DNA of 10,598 nt from a virus (taxonomy: Duplodnaviria > Heunggongvirae > Uroviricota > Caudoviricetes), in IMG/VR virus record IMGVR_UViG_2695420487_000003, positions 1 to 10,598 of that record. The stretch is one strand, 5' to 3'. Made by a program: the position numbers and the translations under genes. The notes below the pieces were generated by a model, which had not been told where the DNA came from, searched no databases, and worked only from the letters and a program-made list of their open reading frames with translations. Positions 1-10,598 of the stretch are shown piece by piece (positions within the stretch are counted from its first letter, which is position 1; each line of letters begins with the position of its first letter).

Positions 1-326
1 GGGGTGATACTTTTGCCGTCCGCCGGTACCGGAATATTCGCAACCGCATCATTCACCGCCTGCTGCAGTACATCCGGATCATAATCACGACCATCACGCG
101 GTACCGGAATGGTCCCCACAGCGTCATCCACCATCGCCTGCAGAACCGGATGTACCTCATCCACCGTCACATGCTTCTGTAATACCGCCGACAGGGAAGC
201 CAGTTTCTCTTCAAACGCTTGTGCCTGCGCGGCCATCTTCTCCTCAAATGTGCGCTGTAAATCCGCCAGCACCGTGGCGAATTCTTCGCCCAGTGCACGA
301 ATAATGGACAGTTCCCGTTCCGTCAT
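1..326 (-). CDS. hypothetical phage head-module protein, N-terminal fragment (gene continues past the left edge of the window)
   Basis: Minus-strand ATG at 326-324 overlaps the portal stop (ATGA coupling). The frame stays open to position 1; my hand translation reads MTERELSIIRALGEEFATVLADLQRTFEEKMAAQAQAFEEKLASLSAVLQKHVTVDEVHPVLQAMVDDAVGTIPVPRDGRDYDPDVLQQAVNDAVANIPVPADGKSITP. Absent from the ORF track because it is truncated. No family recognised. Confidence 0.5.
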   Translation of the reverse strand, partial: MTERELSIIRALGEEFATVLADLQRTFEEKMAAQAQAFEEKLASLSAVLQKHVTVDEVHPVLQAMVDDAVGTIPVPRDGRDYDPDVLQQAVNDAVANIPVPADGKSIT

Positions 327-1687
327 TTTCGCAGTATCCCCCTCAACATCGCTTTCAACGCACCATGCTCTGTTTCACTGATTGCCTTATTACAGTCAGA
401 TGCGCCGTCAGGCAGTTGGGCTGAAACTCTTTTCCCGGACGACGCAAACGGATCTTCACGGGCATCACGACGGGACAGCGCCTCCAGACTGTAGTTCTGC
501 TGCTGAAGATACAGTGCATCACCGCCGGCCAGGGGCGGCAGGTTCTCACGTTTACGGGCCTCATTGGGCGTGAGAAGCGTATTTTTCACCGACTCACCCA
601 GCGTTTTCATGCGCCGTTCGCTGTCCATTCTCAGCAGCGTGGTGACGTCAAACTCCGTACTCTCGTTTTCCCCCGTTTCCAGCGCCTCATCCAGTAACAG
701 TTCAATGGACTCAATCAGCGTCTGCAGGCACTGGGAATAATACTGCTGCTCCAGCGCCTCCACGTTGTCACTGGAAGGTGGCTGGCCAACGCCAATCTTG
801 TAGGCCGGGACACGGAACACCGAACAGACAATTTCAGCGGTCATCTTCAGTTGTTCCACCGTCTGCGCATCCACCGGTGAAAACGTCGTGGGGTTGTATT
901 TTGCCCCGTTGCTCAGAATGGCCGTTTTCCCCGCATTTTCGCCGGTATACCCGCTGTCCCAGTTGCTCTTCAGTTTTTTCGCATTTTCTTCCGTAATACT
1001 GCCGGGGATCTCAATCACCCCGGACGGCCTGCCGCCATTTCTGAAAAAAGACGTCGAATTTTCCTGAATATGATGCCCCTGCGTGGCCGCCAGCCCGGCG
1101 GCATACACCGGCGGCAGCCCCACAAGCGGATGAAAAAAACAGTTAAACCGGTCGTGGATCACTTCCCGGGCAGGCACCGTCACCGCCTCCGTGATCCCGC
1201 AGTTCCGGTCCGGCGTGATGCGATAGAACACCTCGCCGTCATCCGCCACCAGAGGTTCAACCCGGTTCCAGTCCAGAATACGCAGTTCTTTGATCTGCCC
1301 CCGGGAGTTACGGATTTTCAGCACCACCGTATTGCCGTGACGCAGTTTGGCGTTCAGCCACAGTTCAAAAAACTGGATACGATTCTGCTGTGAATTGGGA
1401 CGACGACAGAGGCGGGCAATATCCCCCTGCCGTTTTTCACGGCGGATCCCCTGTGTATCTGTCTGCATCAGGCGCAGCCGCATTTTGGCGATATCCTGGG
1501 ATATCAGCGAAATGCAAGAAAACACCGCATGAAAGGAGAGGACACTTTCCGGATCGGCTTTCACACCCTGCTGCCAGGCGCCGGCAAAGGGCTCAGCCAC
1601 CGCCTGAAACAGGCTGGTCCAGCCCACCTCTTTTACATCACGTCCTGATTTCTGGTTTTTTCGGGTTCGTCGCAAAAAGTTCCACAT
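323..1687 (-). CDS. phage portal protein, HK97 family-like
   Basis: 454-aa ORF. Segments typical of HK97-type portals: AVFSCISLISQDIAKMRLRL near the N-terminus, FFRNGGRPSGVIEIPGSITEENAKKLKSNW, and SPVDAQTVEQLKMTAEIVCSVFRVPAYKIGV resembling the conserved portal FGVPPxLxG region. ATG at 1687 has GGAG about 8 nt upstream and an in-frame stop one codon further up. Sits in a terminase/capsid module. Confidence 0.8.
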   Translation of the reverse strand: MWNFLRRTRKNQKSGRDVKEVGWTSLFQAVAEPFAGAWQQGVKADPESVLSFHAVFSCISLISQDIAKMRLRLMQTDTQGIRREKRQGDIARLCRRPNSQQNRIQFFELWLNAKLRHGNTVVLKIRNSRGQIKELRILDWNRVEPLVADDGEVFYRITPDRNCGITEAVTVPAREVIHDRFNCFFHPLVGLPPVYAAGLAATQGHHIQENSTSFFRNGGRPSGVIEIPGSITEENAKKLKSNWDSGYTGENAGKTAILSNGAKYNPTTFSPVDAQTVEQLKMTAEIVCSVFRVPAYKIGVGQPPSSDNVEALEQQYYSQCLQTLIESIELLLDEALETGENESTEFDVTTLLRMDSERRMKTLGESVKNTLLTPNEARKRENLPPLAGGDALYLQQQNYSLEALSRRDAREDPFASSGKRVSAQLPDGASDCNKAISETEHGALKAMLRGILRK

Positions 1688-1898
1688 TCGCTATGCTCCG
1701 CATCATGTTTCTTTTTCTGACCCGCCGGACGTCGCGCTGTGATGTACTCCGCCTTCCTCAGGCGAACCAGCACCTCCGCACACGGCTGTGCGACATCCCG
1801 GATATCCCCGGGCCGGGCATCATGTGTACCCTGCAGATATCGGATTTTTGCCATCAGTTACTGCGGGACGCTCTCACCTCCCGCCCTCCTCATCAGAC

Positions 1899-3836
1899 TC
1901 AGCCGCCGGACGCACTGCCGTAGTTCACACCGGTGATCACAGCCACCGCCGCAGTACGGCGACGACGCCAGTTGATCCAGCGCTCCGCACGGATGGCCAC
2001 GCTGCCGGTCTGGAACATGGAAACCAGCTCCACCGGCGACGGTGTGGTGCTGTCGCCGCCCGGCTCAGACTGCATTTCCAGTGACGCTTCACGGGACATA
2101 TCCACTGCCACACCGCCGTCATCCGCCAGATAAATATCCGGTGCATTCACCAGTACCAGCTGGTCACCCACATACTGGGAGACAATCACCGGAAGCCCCT
2201 GAAAGATCCCGCCCAGCAGGGTCATGTCCGGATATTCCTTCTGACCCAGCGCATTTTTACGCATGGACAGCGCCAGGGCATTGGTGCTGGACATCAGCCA
2301 GACCGCACCAGTGGGCTGCAGATTTGCCGTCACAAACTGGCCAAACGCGGCCTCGGCATCCGCATCCGGGTTACCGGTTGATGCCGTGCCCTTCACATCA
2401 TGGGTGATGGACGCCGGGGAGACATCTGCCACTGCAGCTTTTTTCGGGTCCACAAAGTCTGTGTCCAGACGCGCCACCACCGCTTCTGCCAGCGCATTAC
2501 GGACCAGCGCATCAGCTGCCGGACTGGAAAAACGGATCAATTCTTCCGTCAGTACCGCAATGGCCGACACTTTCGCATGACTGAAGGTGATGGATTCAAA
2601 ATCAAACTTCGTCAGGGGTTTTGCCTTACCCTCACCCACCCAGCCGGCAGCACCGCCGGACACCTGGGCGTGCACACGGATATTGAACGGCACCTGACGA
2701 AGTGCAGGGATCCCGCCCTGACCAAATCGCCCGATAATGGTCTGCGGACGCAGGTAATCAATAAAGTCCTGTGCGTATTCCTGATATTCAGACAGGCTGC
2801 CTGCCCACTGCGGATCCGTGGTGGTCCCCGCGCCCACTGCCGATTTCAGGACATGATGCAGACGACTGTCATCCGGATACTGACGACGGGCCACTTCCAG
2901 GGCTTCAGATCGGACGCCTTTAGCCGCAGCCAGCGATTTGGCAAAGCGGGCGAAGCCAATCCCCTTCTCCAGTTTCTGCTCCACACGGATCACCGGCGCT
3001 GAAGCCACCGCGGCCACATTCCCGTTACCGGCCTGTTTCACCGGCTGCGCCGTGGCGGCCTTACCGGCTTCCAGTTCACGCAGGCGCTTCAGGTGCGCAT
3101 CCACCTGACGGATTTCCGCTGCGGTGTTGTCGTAATGCTCTTCCTCCTCCACATCCAGCGTGCGCCCTTCCTCTGCGGCTTTGGTCATGACCTCCTCAAG
3201 GGAGGCTGCCAGCGCTGCACGCTTGTTTTCAAAACTTTTAATCTGTTCGCCAATATTCATTATGGTCTTTTCCTTATGAAAAACGGTTGTTGACTGTGCC
3301 GCAGCGCCGGCAGAAGATGCGATTTTCACCACCGGTTTCCGGTTGCCGGACGCGGCAGAAAACGGGCGGTCGTAAGATTTAATGGTCCGGATGGTGCATT
3401 CCGCATTCGCGGGCACGGTGACGGCAGACACCTCCATCAGTTCCCAGCGCAGAAAATGCAGTCCGCCTCCGTCCAGAAAGGTGTATTCATGGGGACGGAA
3501 GCCCACGGACAGCCCCCTGACCAGCCCGGTCTTAATGGCCGCCCAGACCTCATCCAGCCGGGCTGCCATCTGGGAGGGCATCCCCGGCTCCGGCTTCACC
3601 AGCATTGCCGTGATTTCCAGCCCTTCCCTGACCCGACGCACCGTACACTGGCCTACAGGGCGGGAATGGTCATGCTGCCAGAGAAACGGGATCGTACTGC
3701 CAAACTCCGCCCCCTCCGGCTCCAGGATGTCACCATCCCGATCCGGAGAAGGCGTTGACGCAATCCCGGTGATCACCCGTTCATCCTCACTGAAGGATTT
3801 CACCGTCAGCAGGGAACAGGCCCGTTTAAGAGTCAC
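1899..3836 (-). CDS. fused prohead protease (HK97 family, S78/U35-like) and HK97-fold major capsid protein
   Basis: 645-aa ORF. GTG start at 3836 sits 5 nt downstream of a perfect AGGAGG. N-terminal part has prohead-protease-like motifs (RVITGIASTPSPDRDGDILEPEGAEF, LMEVSAVTVPANAE). A charged, coiled-coil-like segment follows (KRAALAASLEEVMTKAAEEGRTLDVEEEEHY, LKRLRELEAGKA). The C-terminal roughly 350 aa look like an HK97-type major capsid protein (GWVGEGKAKPLTKFDFESITFSHAKVSAIAVLTEELI, DTDFVDPKK). Assignment from motif memory, not a search. Confidence 0.7.
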   Translation of the reverse strand: MTLKRACSLLTVKSFSEDERVITGIASTPSPDRDGDILEPEGAEFGSTIPFLWQHDHSRPVGQCTVRRVREGLEITAMLVKPEPGMPSQMAARLDEVWAAIKTGLVRGLSVGFRPHEYTFLDGGGLHFLRWELMEVSAVTVPANAECTIRTIKSYDRPFSAASGNRKPVVKIASSAGAAAQSTTVFHKEKTIMNIGEQIKSFENKRAALAASLEEVMTKAAEEGRTLDVEEEEHYDNTAAEIRQVDAHLKRLRELEAGKAATAQPVKQAGNGNVAAVASAPVIRVEQKLEKGIGFARFAKSLAAAKGVRSEALEVARRQYPDDSRLHHVLKSAVGAGTTTDPQWAGSLSEYQEYAQDFIDYLRPQTIIGRFGQGGIPALRQVPFNIRVHAQVSGGAAGWVGEGKAKPLTKFDFESITFSHAKVSAIAVLTEELIRFSSPAADALVRNALAEAVVARLDTDFVDPKKAAVADVSPASITHDVKGTASTGNPDADAEAAFGQFVTANLQPTGAVWLMSSTNALALSMRKNALGQKEYPDMTLLGGIFQGLPVIVSQYVGDQLVLVNAPDIYLADDGGVAVDMSREASLEMQSEPGGDSTTPSPVELVSMFQTGSVAIRAERWINWRRRRTAAVAVITGVNYGSASGG

Positions 3837-3851
3837 ATCAGCCTCCTGAAA

Positions 3852-3874
3852 ATAAAAAAACCGCCGGAGCGGTT
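3852..3874 (-). terminator. short hairpin plus long U-tract between terL and the protease/capsid gene (attenuator or partial terminator candidate)
   Basis: Minus strand reads AACCGC-uccg-GCGGUU followed by UUUUUAUUUU, then AGGAGG and the GTG start of the next gene. Stem is only 6 bp, so strength is uncertain. Confidence 0.35.
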
Positions 3875-3899
3875 CGTGATGGTTACAGGGTGAGCAGGG

Positions 3900-5561
3900 T
3901 TATATGAAAAAAACCTCATACGCTTTCTTTTTCGGTTCCGGATTCAGGGACATCAGGGACACCGCATTGAAGAGCGCCATCAGCGGGTCAATTTTTCCCC
4001 GTCCGCTGGCCTGTTTGGTGATAAGAATGGCGTTACCTTTAGGCTCCCCCCGGGCATTGCCAACGCACCAGGCCATCAGTGGCTGACCACCATGCACCAG
4101 CACTCCCTCAGCCAGTTTGCGCTCGGTGGTTTTGATGGCCCCGCCCAGCTTCCAGCCCTGGCTTATCCCCACCACACTCTCATCGGGGATCCCGGCTTCC
4201 GCCAGTGAATCCAGAATCTGCCCCACACCTGACGGGGCAATACCGATATGGTCCAGTAACTCAGCCTCATGAATACGACGCACATACTCCGCCACTTCCG
4301 CCGTGTCATCCCCGACCCGACGGACAATCGTCATGTCTCCACAGGCCACAAAATCCTGAAACCGGGATGCCTCACTCTTCCGTCTGACCACCGCGGTTTC
4401 ATGCACCCAGGCATGGCCCCAGCCCAGCCATTCGCGGGTTTCCCTGTCACGGCCAGTCACGTACATTCCCAGCAGATCATCCAGGCCCCCGCCGTCAATC
4501 CCCACCGTCACCACATCAGCGCGCTGCAGGATATCGTCCAGGCTGACGCGCCTGCCCTGCTGCTCCCAGAAATCCGCGCCCGCCCAGCGGTCAGAACGCA
4601 GGGCAAGACCGATTTCCACATTGGCGTGTTTTGACATGAAGCCACGAAATGCTTCCTCACCAGCCTCCCGGGCTTTACGGTACTCCCGGTACAGAAAAGC
4701 CTCATCCACCGAATAACCGAGATTCGGGTTAACCATGGCGAGGTTTTCCATCAGCAGGTGAGCCCCGCTTTCCACCATTTCAGGAGGGTGTTCAAATATC
4801 ACCGGCAGAAAGTGCGGATCATGAATTTTGCCGTCACGGACATCCCGGGCGTACTGCAGTTTCTGTCTGAACACCCCGGCTGGCGGCTCATTCGACTGGG
4901 TGGTTGTGTACACCACAAATCCTTCCGGACGGGAGGCAAGCCCGCCGATGGCTTCACGTAGCATGTCTTCCGCTTTGTACTGCTTGCCAAACAGCCACAG
5001 TTCATCAATCAGTGTCCCCACGGACTTGATACCGGACACCGTATTCGGATCGGCTGCCACCACCTTCAGGGTGGTGTCCGTCACCCGATGGGTGATGGTC
5101 CGGATATGTGTCTGCACCTGACAGAGGTCATCCAGATCATCGTCCCGTCGCACCATATCCCTGGCAGGGTTGAAGGCGTTGGCCGCCACCTCCACGGTCG
5201 GGGCCAGAATGGTGTAGCCCGCCGCCTGCCGCCAGTTCAGTAACAGCGCCGTCATCATGATCCCCGCGGCCAGCGTGGACTTACTGTTTTTCTTGGGGAT
5301 AAGGATAAACACTTCCTTGATATGGCGTACACCGGTCTGCGCATCATAGGAGCCAAACAGGGCCGCCACCAGGTCAAACACCCACGGTGCGCAGGACTCC
5401 CCGAACGTCGGGCTACCCGGTGCATCCACAATCCGCAGTTGTTTAAAAATCGCCAGGGCATGTGCAGCCTGGTCCGGATAAATCGGAGCCGGAATAATCG
5501 ACAGTCCCTTTTGCAGGCGCTCTGCCCAGTCCGGACATGCCGTGCTCCATACAGGTATCAT
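3900..5561 (-). CDS. terL: terminase large subunit (Terminase_1 / COG4626-like)
   Basis: 553-aa ORF. ATG at 5561 overlaps the terS stop (ATGA). Deviant Walker-A-like ILIPKKNSKST; C-terminal GKIDPLMALFNAVSLM typical of the nuclease end of this terminase family. Lies directly downstream of a small-terminase gene. Confidence 0.85.
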   Translation of the reverse strand: MIPVWSTACPDWAERLQKGLSIIPAPIYPDQAAHALAIFKQLRIVDAPGSPTFGESCAPWVFDLVAALFGSYDAQTGVRHIKEVFILIPKKNSKSTLAAGIMMTALLLNWRQAAGYTILAPTVEVAANAFNPARDMVRRDDDLDDLCQVQTHIRTITHRVTDTTLKVVAADPNTVSGIKSVGTLIDELWLFGKQYKAEDMLREAIGGLASRPEGFVVYTTTQSNEPPAGVFRQKLQYARDVRDGKIHDPHFLPVIFEHPPEMVESGAHLLMENLAMVNPNLGYSVDEAFLYREYRKAREAGEEAFRGFMSKHANVEIGLALRSDRWAGADFWEQQGRRVSLDDILQRADVVTVGIDGGGLDDLLGMYVTGRDRETREWLGWGHAWVHETAVVRRKSEASRFQDFVACGDMTIVRRVGDDTAEVAEYVRRIHEAELLDHIGIAPSGVGQILDSLAEAGIPDESVVGISQGWKLGGAIKTTERKLAEGVLVHGGQPLMAWCVGNARGEPKGNAILITKQASGRGKIDPLMALFNAVSLMSLNPEPKKKAYEVFFI

Positions 5562-6121
5562 CCGCTTTCCTCATTCTGGTTATTCACCACCAGCCGGGGA
5601 GGTGGTGGCACCGCAAAACGGTTAGCCGCTTTTTTCGCGGCATCACCTTTTGCCGATTTTTTACCGGCATCGCCTTTTTTATGGTGCGTGAACTGCGCCA
5701 GACGCCAGGCCGCATCCAGTGCCAGTTTCGGATCAATGCAGAGGTTTTCCACCAGGATCCGCCCCATGGCTTTCACCGGATCGGGAAGACCATCCTCCAT
5801 ATATTCAATACCAGGAGACATCACCGCGGACGGTGGCATCTCCGGATTGTTTTCGTCCGGCTGTGGTATTGCAGCCACCTCACGGCGACGGGGTTTATCC
5901 TCCTGCTCTGATTTTTTCTGCCGGTAAACAGGAACCTCATCCACCTCCACCGTCTCGCACTGTTTACGGGCTATAAACGCGAGCACCTCCGGATCTTTTG
6001 CCAGCTGCGAGCCTTTAACCCTGGCGGTCTTCGCCGAATAACCGGCGGCAATGGCTGACGCTGTTTTGTTTTTCCCGGACATGAGCGCCAGCGCAAATTT
6101 TCGTTTTTGCGTTGTCAGCAC
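5558..6121 (-). CDS. terS: terminase small subunit (P27 / Terminase_2-like)
   Basis: 187-aa ORF. GTG start at 6121 preceded by GGAGGAGG. N-terminus LTTQKRKFALALMSGKNKTASAIAAGYSAKTARVKGSQLAKDPEV matches the conserved helix-turn-helix start of Terminase_2-type small subunits. Lys/Ala-rich C-terminus. Stop overlaps the terL start. Confidence 0.75.
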   Translation of the reverse strand: MLTTQKRKFALALMSGKNKTASAIAAGYSAKTARVKGSQLAKDPEVLAFIARKQCETVEVDEVPVYRQKKSEQEDKPRRREVAAIPQPDENNPEMPPSAVMSPGIEYMEDGLPDPVKAMGRILVENLCIDPKLALDAAWRLAQFTHHKKGDAGKKSAKGDAAKKAANRFAVPPPPRLVVNNQNEESG

Positions 6122-6410
6122 AGCCTCCTCCCGGGTCCAGAACGCACTCAGCCGGGTATGGTTCAGCCCATTTTTCCCGGCGTCTCATGCCGCAAATGTT
6201 AACTGCTGCCTGGTTAACATTTGCTGAAAAAGCCAGTTAACATTTTTTTCGCACAACAAACTGAATAATAAAGATAAAAACCGAAAAAATGCCCGGGCAG
6301 CCAGTTAACATGTTAACTGGCCTGAAACAGGAATTTTTTCTCTGCATGAGACGGGGGGCGGTGTCCGGGGCGATCGTTTTTTTCGCCGGATGATCCCCCC
6401 CCGGGTCGGG
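6122..6410. other. non-coding packaging-recognition region, candidate cos site (cosN/cosB-like)
   Basis: 289-bp interval between the HNH stop and the terS start with no convincing ORF. Contains the GTTAACAT repeat array, an A/T-rich tract (6244-6290) and a GC-rich segment (6351-6410) with G6 and C8 runs; its core GGGCGGTGTCC resembles the lambda cohesive end GGGCGGCGACCT. The HNH-cos-terS layout is typical of HK97-like cos phages. Confidence 0.4.
6192..6320. repeat. array of CAGTTAACAT / ATGTTAACTG decamer repeats including a perfect 20-bp palindrome
   Basis: Copies at 6196-6205 (ATGTTAACTG), 6211-6220 (tGGTTAACAT), 6234-6243 (CAGTTAACAT), 6302-6311 (CAGTTAACAT) and 6311-6320 (ATGTTAACTG). 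Inverted pair gcaaatgttaac (6192-6203) / gttaacatttgc (6213-6224); perfect palindrome ccagttaacatgttaactgg at 6301-6320. Confidence 0.8.
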
Positions 6411-6776
6411 TTACAGTCCGATGATGTCGTCTGCTCTGCCATGACCTCCGGACACCTCCGGCAGCATCGGGTCCGGCATACCACTCACCGCTTCACGAGC
6501 AGACTTTTGTCGATGGCATTCGGTACAGAGCGTCCAGAGATTCGTCTCCTCATTACCACCACCGAACTGAAGTGCAATGCGGTGATCGAGTTCACTGTCA
6601 CAGAGGTCAACCACACGACCACAGAGACAGCACTGCCCGGCATCCCTGAGCCAGATATGACGCTTGAGGGAAACACGTGCACTGCCACTGACACGACGCT
6701 GTTCCCCCTTCAGAATATTCACCCGTCGGGTGTTCAGAGTTTTGATTCTGCTCTGGAGTGTACGAAGCTCAGCCAT
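6411..6776 (-). CDS. HNH endonuclease (terminase-associated type)
   Basis: 121-aa ORF. ATG at 6776 with GGGGA 6 nt upstream. HNH/zinc-finger motif CCLCGRVVDLCDSELDHRIALQFGGGNEETNLWTLCTECHRQKS. Lies immediately upstream of the candidate cos region and terS, as in HK97-like phages. Confidence 0.85.
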   Translation of the reverse strand: MAELRTLQSRIKTLNTRRVNILKGEQRRVSGSARVSLKRHIWLRDAGQCCLCGRVVDLCDSELDHRIALQFGGGNEETNLWTLCTECHRQKSAREAVSGMPDPMLPEVSGGHGRADDIIGL

Positions 6777-6817
6777 GTAAAATCCCCGTCATATGGCAAT
6801 CAGTAAAGGAAATAAAT

Positions 6818-7018
6818 ATGTCATCGAAAAACCGGACCCGCAGAACCACAACCCGCAATATCCGTTTCCCCAATCACATGATTGAACAGATCAACATCGC
6901 CCTTGAGCATAAAGGGTCCAGTAACTTTTCAGCGTGGGTTATTGAAGCCTGCAGGAGAAGGCTGGCAACAGATGCAACGCATCTGCGTACGGCCAGCATG
7001 ACAAATAACGAGAAATGA
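6818..7018 (+). CDS. small basic protein, DUF3950/YlcI-like (prophage-associated)
   Basis: Internal ATG at 6818 of track ORF 6758..7018, preceded by AAAGGA about 8 nt upstream. 66 aa: MSSKNRTRRTTTRNIRFPNHMIEQINIALEHKGSSNFSAWVIEACRRRLATDATHLRTASMTNNEK. From memory this resembles the YlcI/DUF3950 family of E. coli prophages; unverified. Only convincing plus-strand gene in the window. Confidence 0.55.
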   Translation: MSSKNRTRRTTTRNIRFPNHMIEQINIALEHKGSSNFSAWVIEACRRRLATDATHLRTASMTNNEK

Positions 7019-7207
7019 ACGTTCGGTTTCTTCCACCATCGTACCGGACAGGCGACTATGAGGGGACAACGCCGCGCTCCGTTAACGCGGTAAACCCCGG
7101 TGTGTATCGTTTTTGATTATCCCCGCACACTCGCGCAGAGGAGTCTCCCTGTCGGGCTACGGTCATGGTTAATGCGGAAATACGGCGACGATACAGCGCA
7201 TAATGTG

Positions 7208-7756
7208 TCAGGCTTGAATACCTTTATCGAATCCCGGTAATAAAAACTGTCCCTGTCTCTCCAGACGTTCCAGCTTTGCAAGCAATTGAGGTTTTTTCGT
7301 TCTCCCCCAGCGATTGAGCAGACGGCCTGACATGCTGGCGACATCCTTCTCTTTCATGTACTCCAGCATTACGACGTTACGTTCTGCTTCATAACTTTCG
7401 CTGTACTTACGGAGTTCTGCTGACATCCAGTTAAACGCATTGATATAGGCTTCTTTAACAGCATCGGCTTTTGCCCCGTTAAATCCCATAACCAGCATAA
7501 CGAAGCCACTAAAGTCCATGCGGTAGTAAATCTGTTTCTTGTCAAAAATACCTAAGTCATTGATTTTCTCGACGGCCCCAAAATGGGTTGTCGAGAATTC
7601 CTCAGAACATCTCAAACATTTAATAGCCCTAATCACATGCTGATGGCGTTTACCAAATGCCCTGGCAATCTGGAAGGTGTCAGTTACCGGTTGACCTTCT
7701 GCTGCGGTAACTAACTGGCGAAAGTCGAAGTCATGATTCGCAATTAATTCATTCAT
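7208..7756 (-). CDS. Rha-family phage regulatory protein (Phage_pRha domain)
   Basis: N-terminal region QPVTDTFQIARAFGKRHQHVIRAIKCLRC...FSTTHFG...YYRMDFSGFVMLVMGFNG matches the Rha domain pattern (xVTxSxxIAExFGKRHxxVLRxI). Start placed at the ATG at 7756 (MNELIANHDF...); the track ORF extends to a GTG at 7825, which is an alternative start. Composition is more AT-rich than the head genes. Confidence 0.6.
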   Translation of the reverse strand: MNELIANHDFDFRQLVTAAEGQPVTDTFQIARAFGKRHQHVIRAIKCLRCSEEFSTTHFGAVEKINDLGIFDKKQIYYRMDFSGFVMLVMGFNGAKADAVKEAYINAFNWMSAELRKYSESYEAERNVVMLEYMKEKDVASMSGRLLNRWGRTKKPQLLAKLERLERQGQFLLPGFDKGIQA

Positions 7757-7910
7757 GGCGTTGCCTGCTTCTTTGAAATGAACCTTTGCCGCACAGGAAA
7801 CCAGCCCACCGAGGCTCGCCAGCACTAACTGGTATCCTCAAAGGCCCATTCCAAAGGGTCAGGTTCGGTGTTTATTGTGCGCTGCGGTGCGCGGTGAAAT
7901 ACCGGTACAA

Positions 7911-7936
7911 AAATGCCCCGCATCTGCGAGGCATTT
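7911..7936 (-). terminator. weak hairpin plus short U-tract downstream of Rz (possible terminator or RNA-stabilising stem)
   Basis: Arms aaatgcc (7911-7917) and ggcattt (7930-7936) with inner cgca/tgcg pairing. On the minus strand the stem is followed by TTTTTGT. About 40 nt downstream of the Rz stop. Confidence 0.25.
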
Positions 7937-7974
7937 TCCTGAAAGTCACTTGTTAAATTTCAGTGAAATTAAAA

Positions 7975-8412
7975 TTATTTTAAGCACTGCGTCCTGATGT
8001 ATTCCTGCAGGTAGTTAACCTGCGCGGTTATCTTGTCGATTCCACCTCGGAGACGGTAATAATTGAGTTCAGCATCTGCTGTAAGTCCTGGGCTTTCTCC
8101 ATCGCCCATGCTGCTGGCTCCGGTCGTTGACTTTGCACAGGTGGCGGAGACTTGCAGGCGCTTACGCCCAGCAGAAACATCAGCACGGAGACTTTCGATA
8201 GTCGCATTAGCATCAGCAAGCTCCTTTGTGTATCTGGCGTCAAGTTCTGCTACATCACGTTGCCGCTTCTGCATATCAGCGATGATGGATGTGGCTTTAT
8301 CGCGCTGCTCTTTGTAGGCGATGGCGTTATCACGGTAATGATTAACAGCCCATGAAAGGCAGACGATGAGGCAGATGACCAGAACGTAGATAATCGCGGT
8401 TACTCTGCTCAT
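7975..8412 (-). CDS. Rz: i-spanin Rz
   Basis: ATG at 8412 overlaps the endolysin stop (ATGA). N-terminal transmembrane segment [20 protein letters not shown] followed by a charged, coiled-coil periplasmic domain. Position is immediately after the endolysin. The track ORF has a 4-codon GTG extension that I reject. Confidence 0.75.
8028..8213 (-). CDS. Rz1: o-spanin Rz1 (outer-membrane lipoprotein), embedded in Rz in another frame
   Basis: ATG at 8213 with AAGGAG 8 nt upstream. [20 protein letters not shown] gives a signal peptide with a lipobox-like VSAC Cys, followed by the proline-rich [16 protein letters not shown]. Wholly nested inside Rz, as in lambda and phage 21. Confidence 0.65.
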
Positions 8413-8906
8413 TGTTGCCCCCACAAACAGACTTCACGCTCAATCTCACGGCGAGTCATCAGCCCTTTCCATTGCTTACCGCCAGCGTATGTCCAGCGCC
8501 GTAGCTGATCACATGCGCCTTTGATATCGCCCTGGTTTATTTTGCGAAGAAGCGTCGATGTTCTGAAATTGCCAGCGCCCACGTTGTAAACGAACGAGTA
8601 AAGAGCGCCGCGCGTTGTTTCCGGTATATCGACTTTGATGTACGGGTTTATTTGTCTGGCGACCGTGGCAAGGTCTTTATTCAGGAGGGCTTTGCATTCT
8701 GCTTCGGTATACGTTTTACCGGGCATGATGTCTTTTCCGGTGTGTCCATGACATACAGTCCATACGCCAACGATATCTTCGTATGGTATGTAGCTGACAC
8801 CTTCCAGGCCATCGTCACCACTCGGACCAGTGATGAGCACAGACGCTATGGCAACAGCCCCACCACCAATAGCAGCAGCAACGGCTTTTCGTAATGATGG
8901 AGGCAT
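8409..8906 (-). CDS. R: SAR endolysin (phage-21 R / lysozyme, signal-anchor-release type)
   Basis: 165 aa. N-terminal Gly/Ala-rich weakly hydrophobic SAR segment [30 protein letters not shown]. Catalytic E35-x8-D44-x5-T50 spacing in [17 protein letters not shown]. Resembles the R21 / DLP12 RrrD lysozyme family. Start overlaps the holin stop (TAATG). Confidence 0.9.
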
Positions 8907-9112
8907 TATTCACCTCTCGCAGCCTTGCGCTTATCTTCTTTAATCTTGAAATAAAGGTTTGTCAGATACGTCAGCAGGCCAAACAGCAGACTCCCCAGCA
9001 CACCGATTGCCACCCACTGGGACGGAGAGACTTTGTCCAGCAGCTGCAGTAACCAGTATCCCGTCCCCACCGCTGACGTGGTGTATGACACACCCGTTGT
9101 GATTTTTTCCAT
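8906..9112 (-). CDS. S: class II holin (pinholin, phage-21 S-like)
   Basis: 68 aa from the ATG at 9112: [68 protein letters not shown]. Two transmembrane segments and a charged C-terminus. Paired with a SAR endolysin, which is the pinholin signature. The track's GTG-initiated 23-codon extension is rejected. Confidence 0.85.
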
Positions 9113-9367
9113 CTGATGTATGTCTCCGTCACCGCCGACAGAAAATGAAAGTAAAGGAAAACAAAAAGCCGCCAGTGTCACCCACTGACGGCCAACTCCG
9201 GGAGCCGTGATTATGGCATTCAGGCTCTGCTAAAAATGCCAGATAACATTCCGACCAACCCCTGATTCAGGTTATAAATGACACAATATCTTGACAACAT
9301 CCGTCACTGTCTGTCAGAAAATGTACTGCCAGATATAAGTATCATGTGAAACCCAACTATCCTTCTT

Positions 9368-9410
9368 AGCCAGTACTTCTCCGACGAAAGTCAGTACTGG
9401 CTGTTTTTTT
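9368..9410 (+). terminator. Rho-independent-terminator-like hairpin plus T7 tract, functional orientation on the plus strand
   Basis: 10-bp perfect stem agccagtact (9368-9377) / agtactggct (9393-9402), inner gac-GAAA-gtc GNRA tetraloop, followed by gttttttt (9403-9410). On the minus strand the hairpin is followed by AAGAAGG, so it is not a canonical terminator for the late operon. Confidence 0.4.
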
Positions 9411-9411
9411 A

Positions 9412-10598
9412 TTATGCTGCCGGTGCATTTATCTCCAGCACCAGACTTTCTATCTCAACGCCATACGCTGCATTTTTTGTAACATCCGTCAGCGTCAGCA
9501 CATTCAGTCCCAGTGTCAGACTGTCTTTTATAACCTGGAATGCCGGGCCAGCCACTCCATTCAGTTTCGGAGTAACCGTGGCACTGCCGGCGGTGAACAC
9601 CAGCTCCAGCGTCTGCCAGTCGTTACCGTAATCGCCGAACTCCCCCAGCTTCGTGTTTCCGGCTTTCCTGTGATGCATCAGATTCACTCTGCCGTCAGTG
9701 GTCTGAGTGAAGTACGACATCAGGAACGGATTACCGGTACCCGTCATCGCCACACCATCAGGAACGGGAGCATCCGTATACAGATAAATCCCCAGCCCGA
9801 ACTGATTGTTGGTCAGTGCGCCTGACAGGCGGAACTTACAGTTCAGTCTGCCGCCCTGTGTCAGCAGGGTAATTGCGTCATCCACCGGATGCGTCAGGGA
9901 CCAGGNNNNNNNNNGACAACTGAATTCCGCCATCCTTAATGCTCCAGCCCTGCGCAGCAGCCTCTCCGGCTGCCGGCAGCAGGGAGATTGTGCGAACGGA
10001 CGTATCTGCAGACGGACCCGATGGCGTGTTGCCGCCGGGCGAGGGTTTGATTTCCGGTGCCTTACCACTGATGAAGGCTGAGGTGCGCCCGGCTGCGTTC
10101 AGAATAGCGGTTGCCAGACGATCCGGAATAATGCTCCTGCGCGCCCATGAACTGAAATGTGTCGGGCGGTTTGATGATACCTGGTTTCCATTCGTTCTCG
10201 ATGCCGCACCGTAATATCCTGATGCCGGAATATCCGGATCTTCTGCCGGCGCGTTAGTGGCGGTATTGACGCCGTTACCGTCTGTCATGAAGGGCACAAA
10301 ATAAACGCCCTCACTCTCCCTGTTTTTATACCCGCCGTACACGGTGTCGTACTGGGTAGCGTATGTATTTTTCCAGTAATACGTCGTGTCACCACAAATC
10401 CACGGCACATTTACAGCACTGCCACCATGACACTGCGCGTTAAACACAGTGAGGTCAGCACGAAACTGCTTCAGCATGGCTGTAAACAGCGCAGGTTGCT
10501 GTGCGTAGGTGGCGGCGCTCATGTCAAACTCTCCCTGCATCCAGCACACCGCCAGCAACACATTTTTCGGGTTCTTCTGTAATGCAGCTTTAGTGCGC
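9412..10598 (-). CDS. large esterase-like late-region protein, probably NanS-p-type sialate O-acetylesterase; partial (N-terminus beyond right edge) and broken by an assembly gap
   Basis: Track ORFs 9878..10561 and 9412..10068 are one gene whose frame changes across the N-run at 9906-9914. The upstream frame remains open to 10598 (RTKAALQKNPKNVLLAVCWMQGEFD...). Stop TAA at 9412-9414. Sits immediately upstream of holin S, where lambdoid/Stx prophages carry the nanS-p (yjhS-like) gene. Family call is from context and memory, not a search. Confidence 0.5.
9906..9914. other. run of 9 N (assembly or scaffold gap)
   Basis: Literal nnnnnnnnn in the sequence; the reading frame of the enclosing gene differs on the two sides, so the true gap length is probably not 9. 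Confidence 0.95.

Follow-up and report, generated by a model that had tools for sequence, protein, structure and literature searches.

The fused gene and its domains

The window, as the whole stretch of DNA analyzed is called here, comprises 10,598 nt (positions 1 to 10,598 of the IMG/VR virus record IMGVR_UViG_2695420487_000003) and represents the late region of a lambdoid prophage from E. coli. Its head genes form a lambdoid E. coli siphovirus prophage block of the Pankowvirus or Shiga toxin (Stx) 1a-/Stx2c-phage type. In this block, one open reading frame (ORF) of 645 aa encodes an HK97-type prohead protease, a delta-like scaffolding segment and an HK97-fold capsid protein, and the portal gene follows downstream. 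A sequence-only reading of the window had described this ORF as a fusion of protease, charged coiled-coil-like segment and capsid, had left it open whether the unusual gene order was a distinct but natural architecture or a rearrangement, and had suggested that, if the fusion is real, each capsid subunit would come with a maturation protease of its own. The fused ORF and its parts are as follows.

1899–3836, minus strand: protease-capsid fusion ORF, 645 aa, matched over its full length by phrog_617 (E 1e-258)
3834–3847, minus strand: upstream initiation site of the full-length product (AGGAGG at 3842–3847, 5-nt spacer, GTG at 3834–3836)
3375–3806, minus strand: HK97-type (S78/U35) prohead serine protease domain, residues ~11–154 (Pfam S78 and BLASTP to HK97 gp4)
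3261–3374, minus strand: disordered, indel-rich linker or protease C-terminal tail, residues 155–192 (predicted local distance difference test score, pLDDT, below 50 over residues 144–192; variable alignment columns)
3258–3275, minus strand: putative internal initiation site of a 453-aa delta-capsid protein (AAGGAA at 3270–3275, 9-nt spacer, ATG of Met193 at 3258–3260)
2832–3260, minus strand: delta-like scaffolding segment, residues 193 to ~335 (two long helices in 195–261, then a helical region; C-terminal limit approximate)
1902–2831, minus strand: HK97-fold capsid body, residues ~336–645 (Phage_capsid match at 386–635 and Foldseek), followed by the stop codon at 1899–1901

The three-part composition proposed in the sequence-only reading was borne out by Pfam, TIGR01554, structure prediction and Foldseek. 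The domain mapping that it had suggested as a check placed Peptidase_S78 (PF04586) at residues 48–152 (33.7 bits vs. a cut-off of 21) and Phage_capsid (PF05065) at residues 386–635 (51.5 bits vs. a cut-off of 24.2), both above cut-off. Moreover, TIGR01554 (major_cap_HK97) matched residues 204–584 with 76.3 bits against a cut-off of 27.5. The protease profile TIGR01543 scored 45.5 bits, which was under its stricter equivalog cut-off of 59. The NCBIfam profile NF045541, which is named "prohead protease/major capsid protein fusion protein," scored 54.2 bits over residues 49–289 only, far from its cut-off of 525. The fused ORF shares the architecture of NF045541 but belongs to a different family.

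BLASTP to HK97 gp4 (E 2e-8) aligned His55 (3672–3674) and Ser110 (3507–3509) with gp4 His65 and Ser114, which we take to be the catalytic residues of the HK97 protease. H55, S110 and E135 were invariant in an alignment of 40 relatives whose identities ranged from 36 to 78%. The protease is predicted to cleave the capsid precursor.

BLASTP of the capsid part against HK97 gp5 gave nothing significant. The capsid identity was therefore taken from profile and fold evidence. The AlphaFold2 model of the 645-aa protein had a mean pLDDT of 73.9. It contained a protease domain at ~11–143, a disordered region at 144–192, helices at 195–223 and 229–261, further helices, and an HK97-type fold from ~342, with pLDDT of 80–94 over ~450–640. 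Foldseek with the capsid fold found the capsids of Bxb1, HK97, D3 and gene transfer agents with E of 1e-15 to 1e-9 and TM-scores of at most 0.74 when normalised by target. A search of PDB sequences with the fusion returned only a weak match to the Bxb1 capsid and no protease structure. No separate scaffold gene was found between terL and the connector genes.

The linker also carried some conserved motifs, which were AASG at ~161–164, KPVVKI at 167–172 and a family consensus of P-G-A/V-S-G, represented by AGAAA at 176–180 in the window. In relatives with separate genes, the protease C-terminus was PFVIRxIKR, which matches KPVVKI of the linker and lies just ahead of the stop codon. These motifs could be a capsid-targeting tail of the protease or self-cleavage sites.

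The joint at Met193 and its start signals

Relatives were identified by a search over 1.84 billion representative proteins. The search gave 12440 matches, of which 1153 had E <1e-30, and the best 150 (38–53% identity) were almost all fusions of 640–670 aa. Two sets were compared: a genome set of 80 loci, drawn from Alpha-, Beta- and Gammaproteobacteria as well as from several other phyla, and a set of 80 loci from viral contigs.

Protease and capsid were encoded by a single fused frame in 64/80 genome loci and by separate ORFs in 16/80, and the break in the split loci was always at residue ~193. Similarly, several representative relatives were capsid-only proteins (~460 aa), the first residues of which aligned to residue 193/194 of the window protein. 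Split and fused loci differed at the joint by a stop codon or a frameshift. For instance, the two ORFs of L048, L065, L076, and L078 were in the same frame and were separated by one stop codon, which was 4–6 codons ahead of the capsid ATG and sat on the Shine-Dalgarno (SD) motif (TAAGGA). Given that the break was always at ~193 and that a single stop made the difference in some loci, the fusion amounts to nothing more than a missing stop codon of the protease gene. The joint is exactly at Met193, which is the initiator of the capsid itself. In the AlphaFold2 model, the disorder stops at residue 192 and the delta helices start at 195. Parsimony on a neighbour-joining tree of the capsid parts required at least 10 changes between the fused and split forms.

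A start codon was found at the aligned joint in 64/64 fused genome loci, of which 60 had ATG, 2 had GTG and 2 had TTG. As a measure of SD strength, the pairing energy between the 16S anti-SD and positions −20 to −4 was predicted. At the joint of the fused genome loci, its mean was −6.8 kcal/mol and 87% of the joints were at or below −5 kcal/mol. In the same ORFs, 800 further in-frame ATGs averaged −2.7 kcal/mol and only 17% of them were at or below −5 kcal/mol, and all 37162 codon positions gave the same figures as these ATGs. The difference between the joint and the other ATGs was significant (Mann-Whitney p ~1e-23; 60 distinct junction sequences). The result was replicated with 40 distinct junctions from viral contigs, of which 39 had ATG and 1 had GTG and 93% were at or below −5 kcal/mol. 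Thus, an in-frame internal start with a ribosome-binding site at the domain boundary, by which a gene of the lambda C/Nu3 type is recognized, was present in 64/64 and 40/40 junctions.

These results bear on whether the fused gene makes one product or two. If the 645-aa protein were the only product, each capsid subunit would carry its own protease, which would cut itself off in cis or in trans. The conserved Met with its upstream motif would then serve in cleavage or recognition or be a relic of evolution. An uninterrupted ORF with a strong upstream SD is what such a polyprotein would have, and the exchange of M, V and L at the joint would also be conservative at the amino-acid level. The non-ATG joints, however, were specifically GTG or TTG. 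The GGA/AGG (GGA/GAGG) core peaked at −14 to −9 while the residues that it encodes varied (KEG, EEG, KKG, QEG and KG, with HKEK in the window), so that the motif was kept at the nucleotide level as the encoded residues changed, and in split loci it persisted out of frame or in non-coding sequence. The SD of the joint was also not weaker in fused loci than in split loci (−5.7 kcal/mol), where the site must be the sole capsid start, and the linker around the site was otherwise indel-rich and unconserved. In favor of the polyprotein, a rough volume estimate suggests that 415 copies of protease plus delta would still fit into a T=7 procapsid. Overall, we consider the polyprotein unlikely.

The comparison of start signals instead points to a nested, 3'-coterminal gene with two products, similar to lambda C/Nu3, and we regard this as probable. 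The conserved internal start and SD at Met193 would give a separately translated 453-aa product, for which reason the suggestion that all capsid subunits carry their own protease is probably wrong. The 645-aa ORF arose from a protease gene that has no stop codon and reads in frame into the capsid gene. Initiation at GTG 3836 would produce the 645-aa protease-delta-capsid, and initiation at ATG 3260 would produce the 453-aa delta-capsid. The two products would then co-assemble on the portal. Because delta domains face inward, the fused copies would bring the protease, covalently tethered to the delta domain, inside the procapsid. Finally, the protease would remove itself and the delta segments to leave a mature capsid protein of ~300 residues.

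The protease start of the homologues was at the same aligned position, mostly ATG and with a good SD. A weak upstream start, which might have caused a low protease dose, was ruled out by the strong SD and by the ATG of most relatives (GTG in the window). As the upstream start is strong, the ratio of the two products is not readable from sequence, although most of the capsid protein is probably made without protease attached, as the conserved internal start suggests.

Several points weigh against two products. Given the strong AGGAGG start, much full-length protein may be made, and the internal site may be occluded by ribosomes in elongation. The Met/Val/Leu together with the Lys/Glu-Gly motif could be a feature of the protein, such as a self-cleavage site. 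In addition, the compared loci are phylogenetically related, and the p-values overstate their independence despite the 60 and 40 distinct junction sequences. Both the mature N-terminus and the boundaries of the delta segment are taken from the model only. Finally, ribosome profiling, N-terminal sequencing or a virion peptide map was not found in the literature on the fusion family.

Occurrence, gene order and neighboring genes

A 2.4-kb query that spanned both ORF junctions matched 1255 of 5426 complete E. coli genomes at 2988 places, with up to 7 places per genome. The identities of this block were mostly 95–99.8% in the E. coli genomes and 90–99.8% when genomes and phage records were taken together. 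The labels of the Prokaryotic Genome Annotation Pipeline (PGAP) in these genomes were uniform, which were terminase large subunit, phage major capsid protein, hypothetical protein and phage portal protein. A larger block of 5.9 kb with the order of terS, terL, fusion, small ORF, portal, post-portal ORF and connectors was found in 94 phage records, chiefly Stx1a-, Stx2c- and Stx2a-converting phages, at 96–99.8% identity. In the phage records, the fusion is labeled as "major head protein/prohead protease" or "phage prohead protease," while homologues from other sources are labeled as [quoted passage not shown] Thus, the fused gene is an ordinary and already annotated member of a very large family, and its architecture is natural and known (PHROG 617).

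The 645-aa protein was 98.5% identical to that of vB_EcoS_phi330, which is a plaque-forming siphovirus of Pankowvirus with a 55-nm head (PMC12502783). Since phi330 forms plaques, a head module with the fused gene builds working virions. In the paper on phi330 and its supplement, only podoviruses are covered by peptide maps (PMC12502783), and nothing on head-protein processing was found in the literature on BP-4795, YYZ-2008 and Pankowvirus.

The portal gene of the window (323–1687, minus strand) is downstream of the capsid fusion, an order that is non-canonical when compared with the HK97 order of terS, terL, portal, protease and capsid, where protease and capsid are separate genes, as the sequence-only reading had noticed. 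Compared with HK97, the capsid gene is separated from the gp6-like connector gene by the portal and a conserved post-portal gene. Every genome locus in which both neighbors were detected had terL directly upstream of the protease/capsid and an HK97-type portal downstream of it; ~10 loci lacked a detectable terL or portal because of contig ends or divergence. The order of terL, protease/capsid and portal was found in 73/80 viral contigs, and the others were truncated or ambiguous. With both sets taken together, about 150 of the 160 loci had this order. Given that this order was held across the relatives, it is ancestral to the whole clade. By this comparison of sequences, the head modules form a large and old HK97-like clade with the ancestral order of terS, terL, protease(+)capsid and portal.

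Comparison of gene order with related prophages, another of the suggested checks, gave the same order, and the complete genomes contradicted a portal between terL and protease. Of the two options that had been left open, the distinct but natural architecture was upheld by the 1255 complete E. coli genomes, the 94 phage records and the distant relatives that share the order, and the rearrangement was contradicted by the identical order in genomes, phages and those loci of other bacteria where both neighbors were detectable. The wider proposal that the fusion and the displaced portal result from misassembly, recent rearrangement or a frameshifted defective prophage is very improbable. The run of N at 9905–9914 does indicate that the window derives from a scaffolded assembly, but it is 6 kb off and within the esterase gene. 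PGAP calls the neighboring portal "frameshifted" in relatives, but what is labeled in this way is a pair of genes that overlap at ATGA. Although prophage genes often decay, the same ORF and order were present in 1255 complete genomes and in isolated plaque-forming phages, the order was kept in essentially all distant relatives, and the catalytic residues were invariant. The population-wide and clade-wide synteny excluded an assembly artefact or rearrangement.

The other features of the window are given below in the order of transcription, in which the genes from the esterase gene to the post-portal gene are all on the minus strand; the YlcI/YnfO-family gene is on the strand opposite to the HNH gene.

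9412–10068 and 9878–10561, minus strand: SASA/NanS-p-type esterase, broken into two apparent ORFs by the N run at 9905–9914
8906–9181, minus strand: holin
8409–8906, minus strand: lysozyme
7975–8424, minus strand: Rz
7208–7825, minus strand: Rha-family gene
6758–7018, plus strand: YlcI/YnfO-family gene
6411–6776, minus strand: HNH endonuclease, just upstream of terS
6122–6410: 290-nt gap before terS, likely the cos region
5558–6121, minus strand: terS, 187 aa (Pfam Terminase_2, E 1.4e-8; phrog_641, E 2e-68), with its stop overlapping the terL start (ATGA)
3900–5561, minus strand: terL, 553 aa (Pfam TerL_ATPase and TerL_nuclease; phrog_9, E 1e-144)
3858–3875, minus strand: terminator-like hairpin with a 7-bp stem and a T-run (consensus scan only)
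1633–1854, minus strand: small ORF, 73 aa, between capsid and portal (phrog_829, E 5e-37)
323–1687, minus strand: HK97-family portal, 454 aa, downstream of the capsid gene (Pfam Phage_portal, E 4e-81; TIGR01537, 356 bits)
1–326, minus strand: 5' part (108 codons) of the post-portal gene, whose ATG at 324–326 overlaps the portal stop (ATGA) and which continues past the window end

A partnership of HNH endonuclease and terminase is described for HK97-like cos phages. The N run of the esterase gene is 9–10 nt long and ~6 kb from the head genes, which are unaffected. The hairpin consists of GAACCGC-TCCG-GCGGTTT followed by TTTTATTTT. It is located within the 63 nt that separate terL from the fusion and immediately precedes the AGGAGG of the protease start. 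Q-antiterminated late transcription presumably passes through it.

The 73-aa ORF shares 55 nt with the start of the portal gene. No more than 11 loci, all of them enterobacterial, had a detectable copy, and PGAP annotates it as hypothetical. In other members of the clade, the gap between capsid and portal contained a different small gene, such as one of 116 aa in L164.

The post-portal gene was directly after the portal gene in 65/80 loci. It is complete in L002, where it encodes 245 aa (2290–3027, minus strand) and has a 4-nt ATGA overlap with the portal gene. In existing annotations, it is labeled as "portal protein" or, in L001, merged with the portal gene as a "frameshifted" pseudogene, and PHROG 2271 models the portal and post-portal pair as one protein of 859 positions. 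The post-portal protein does not resemble a portal. It starts with a coiled coil, contains PxxDGxD repeats and ends in a domain that matched CBM_5_12 below threshold. Searches of Pfam, NCBIfam, PHROGs and PDB sequences with the 245-aa post-portal and 73-aa ORFs gave just this sub-threshold match and PHROGs without function. The post-portal gene is a conserved gene of the head module and possibly encodes a decoration or portal-associated protein.

Two diverged relatives, P0123 and P0130 (47–53% identity), were ~1090 aa long and had an AAA ATPase domain fused ahead of the protease-capsid part. An AAA fusion in L164 (3047–6331) occupied the same slot, with the order of TerL, small gene, fusion, small ORF and portal. 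It kept the Met at the joint, with GAAAGGA upstream.

Comparison with known systems

Similar to HK97 gp4 and gp5, the window protein combines a protease of the S78/U35 family, with aligned His and Ser, and the same capsid fold with an N-terminal helical segment of the delta type, and neither virus has a separate scaffold gene. The HK97-type portal, the gp6-, gp7- and gp10-like connector genes and an HNH gene beside terS are also shared. Different from HK97, in which the genes are separate and the portal is located between terL and protease, the window has one frame with the portal after the capsid. The delta-like segment of the window is also longer, with ~140 aa compared with 103 aa in HK97, and the capsid sequences are too diverged for BLASTP. 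In the work of Duda, Oh and Hendrix of 2013, the HK97 protease is said to enter proheads via a non-covalent C-terminal tail. The covalent tether of the fused product would replace this targeting tail of gp4.

[quoted passage not shown] Ribosome profiling has also revealed a nested protease/scaffold gene, gp17/gp17.5, in the archaeal virus HFTV1 (bioRxiv 10.64898/2026.09.13.751334). An internal in-frame start and delivery of the protease to the procapsid via a shared assembly domain would be common to these systems and the window. In those systems, a free scaffold protein makes up the shared C-terminal part, whereas in the window this part would be delta plus the capsid protein itself. Moreover, the two products of the known systems were demonstrated experimentally, whereas those of the window are putative. 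The lambda protease also belongs to a different family.

Fusions of protease and capsid have been reported before. Gp5 of Pseudomonas phage MD8 is a protease-(scaffold)-capsid fusion with a ClpP-like protease, and its closest capsid relative was reported to be phage Mu (PMC8508860). Other fusions are found in Arthrobacter clusters AM, AU, and AN and in Rhodococcus RRH1 (PMC5513430), and "capsid and protease fusion" is in routine use in the annotation of actinobacteriophages, such as Microbacterium cluster EE. These proteins and NF045541 have the same three-part single-gene architecture as the window protein but belong to different sequence families, and the parts of the MD8, Arthrobacter/RRH1 and Microbacterium EE reports that were available do not mention an internal start. 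No account of a nested protease/delta-capsid gene was found in the searchable literature. Compared with the Stx siphoviruses and prophages, including BP-4795, YYZ-2008, 1717, Stx2a_WGPS8 and phi330 of Pankowvirus and the O157 modules, the gene was 96–98.5% identical and the order was identical. Nothing material set the window apart, and it belongs to this group.

Taken as a whole, the locus is a natural Pankowvirus-type head block that has kept the old order of its clade and probably contains a nested protease/delta-capsid gene. The fused gene and its position are a standard and long-annotated trait of one of the commonest E. coli prophage head modules, including those of Shiga-toxin phages. 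What is added to the annotation is evidence for a conserved internal capsid start, for repeated switching between fused and split forms and for a misannotated post-portal gene. Thus, the ORF is probably two nested genes and is not proof of a protease on every subunit, and the neighboring "frameshifted portal" is two genes. If the nested gene is real, the scheme of lambda, HSV and HFTV1 would be extended to a case in which the shared part includes the capsid protein, and the switching would mean that tethered and untethered proteases interconvert across the clade. If the internal start is confirmed, the clade would offer many natural fused/split pairs for studying protease dosing and delivery into procapsids.

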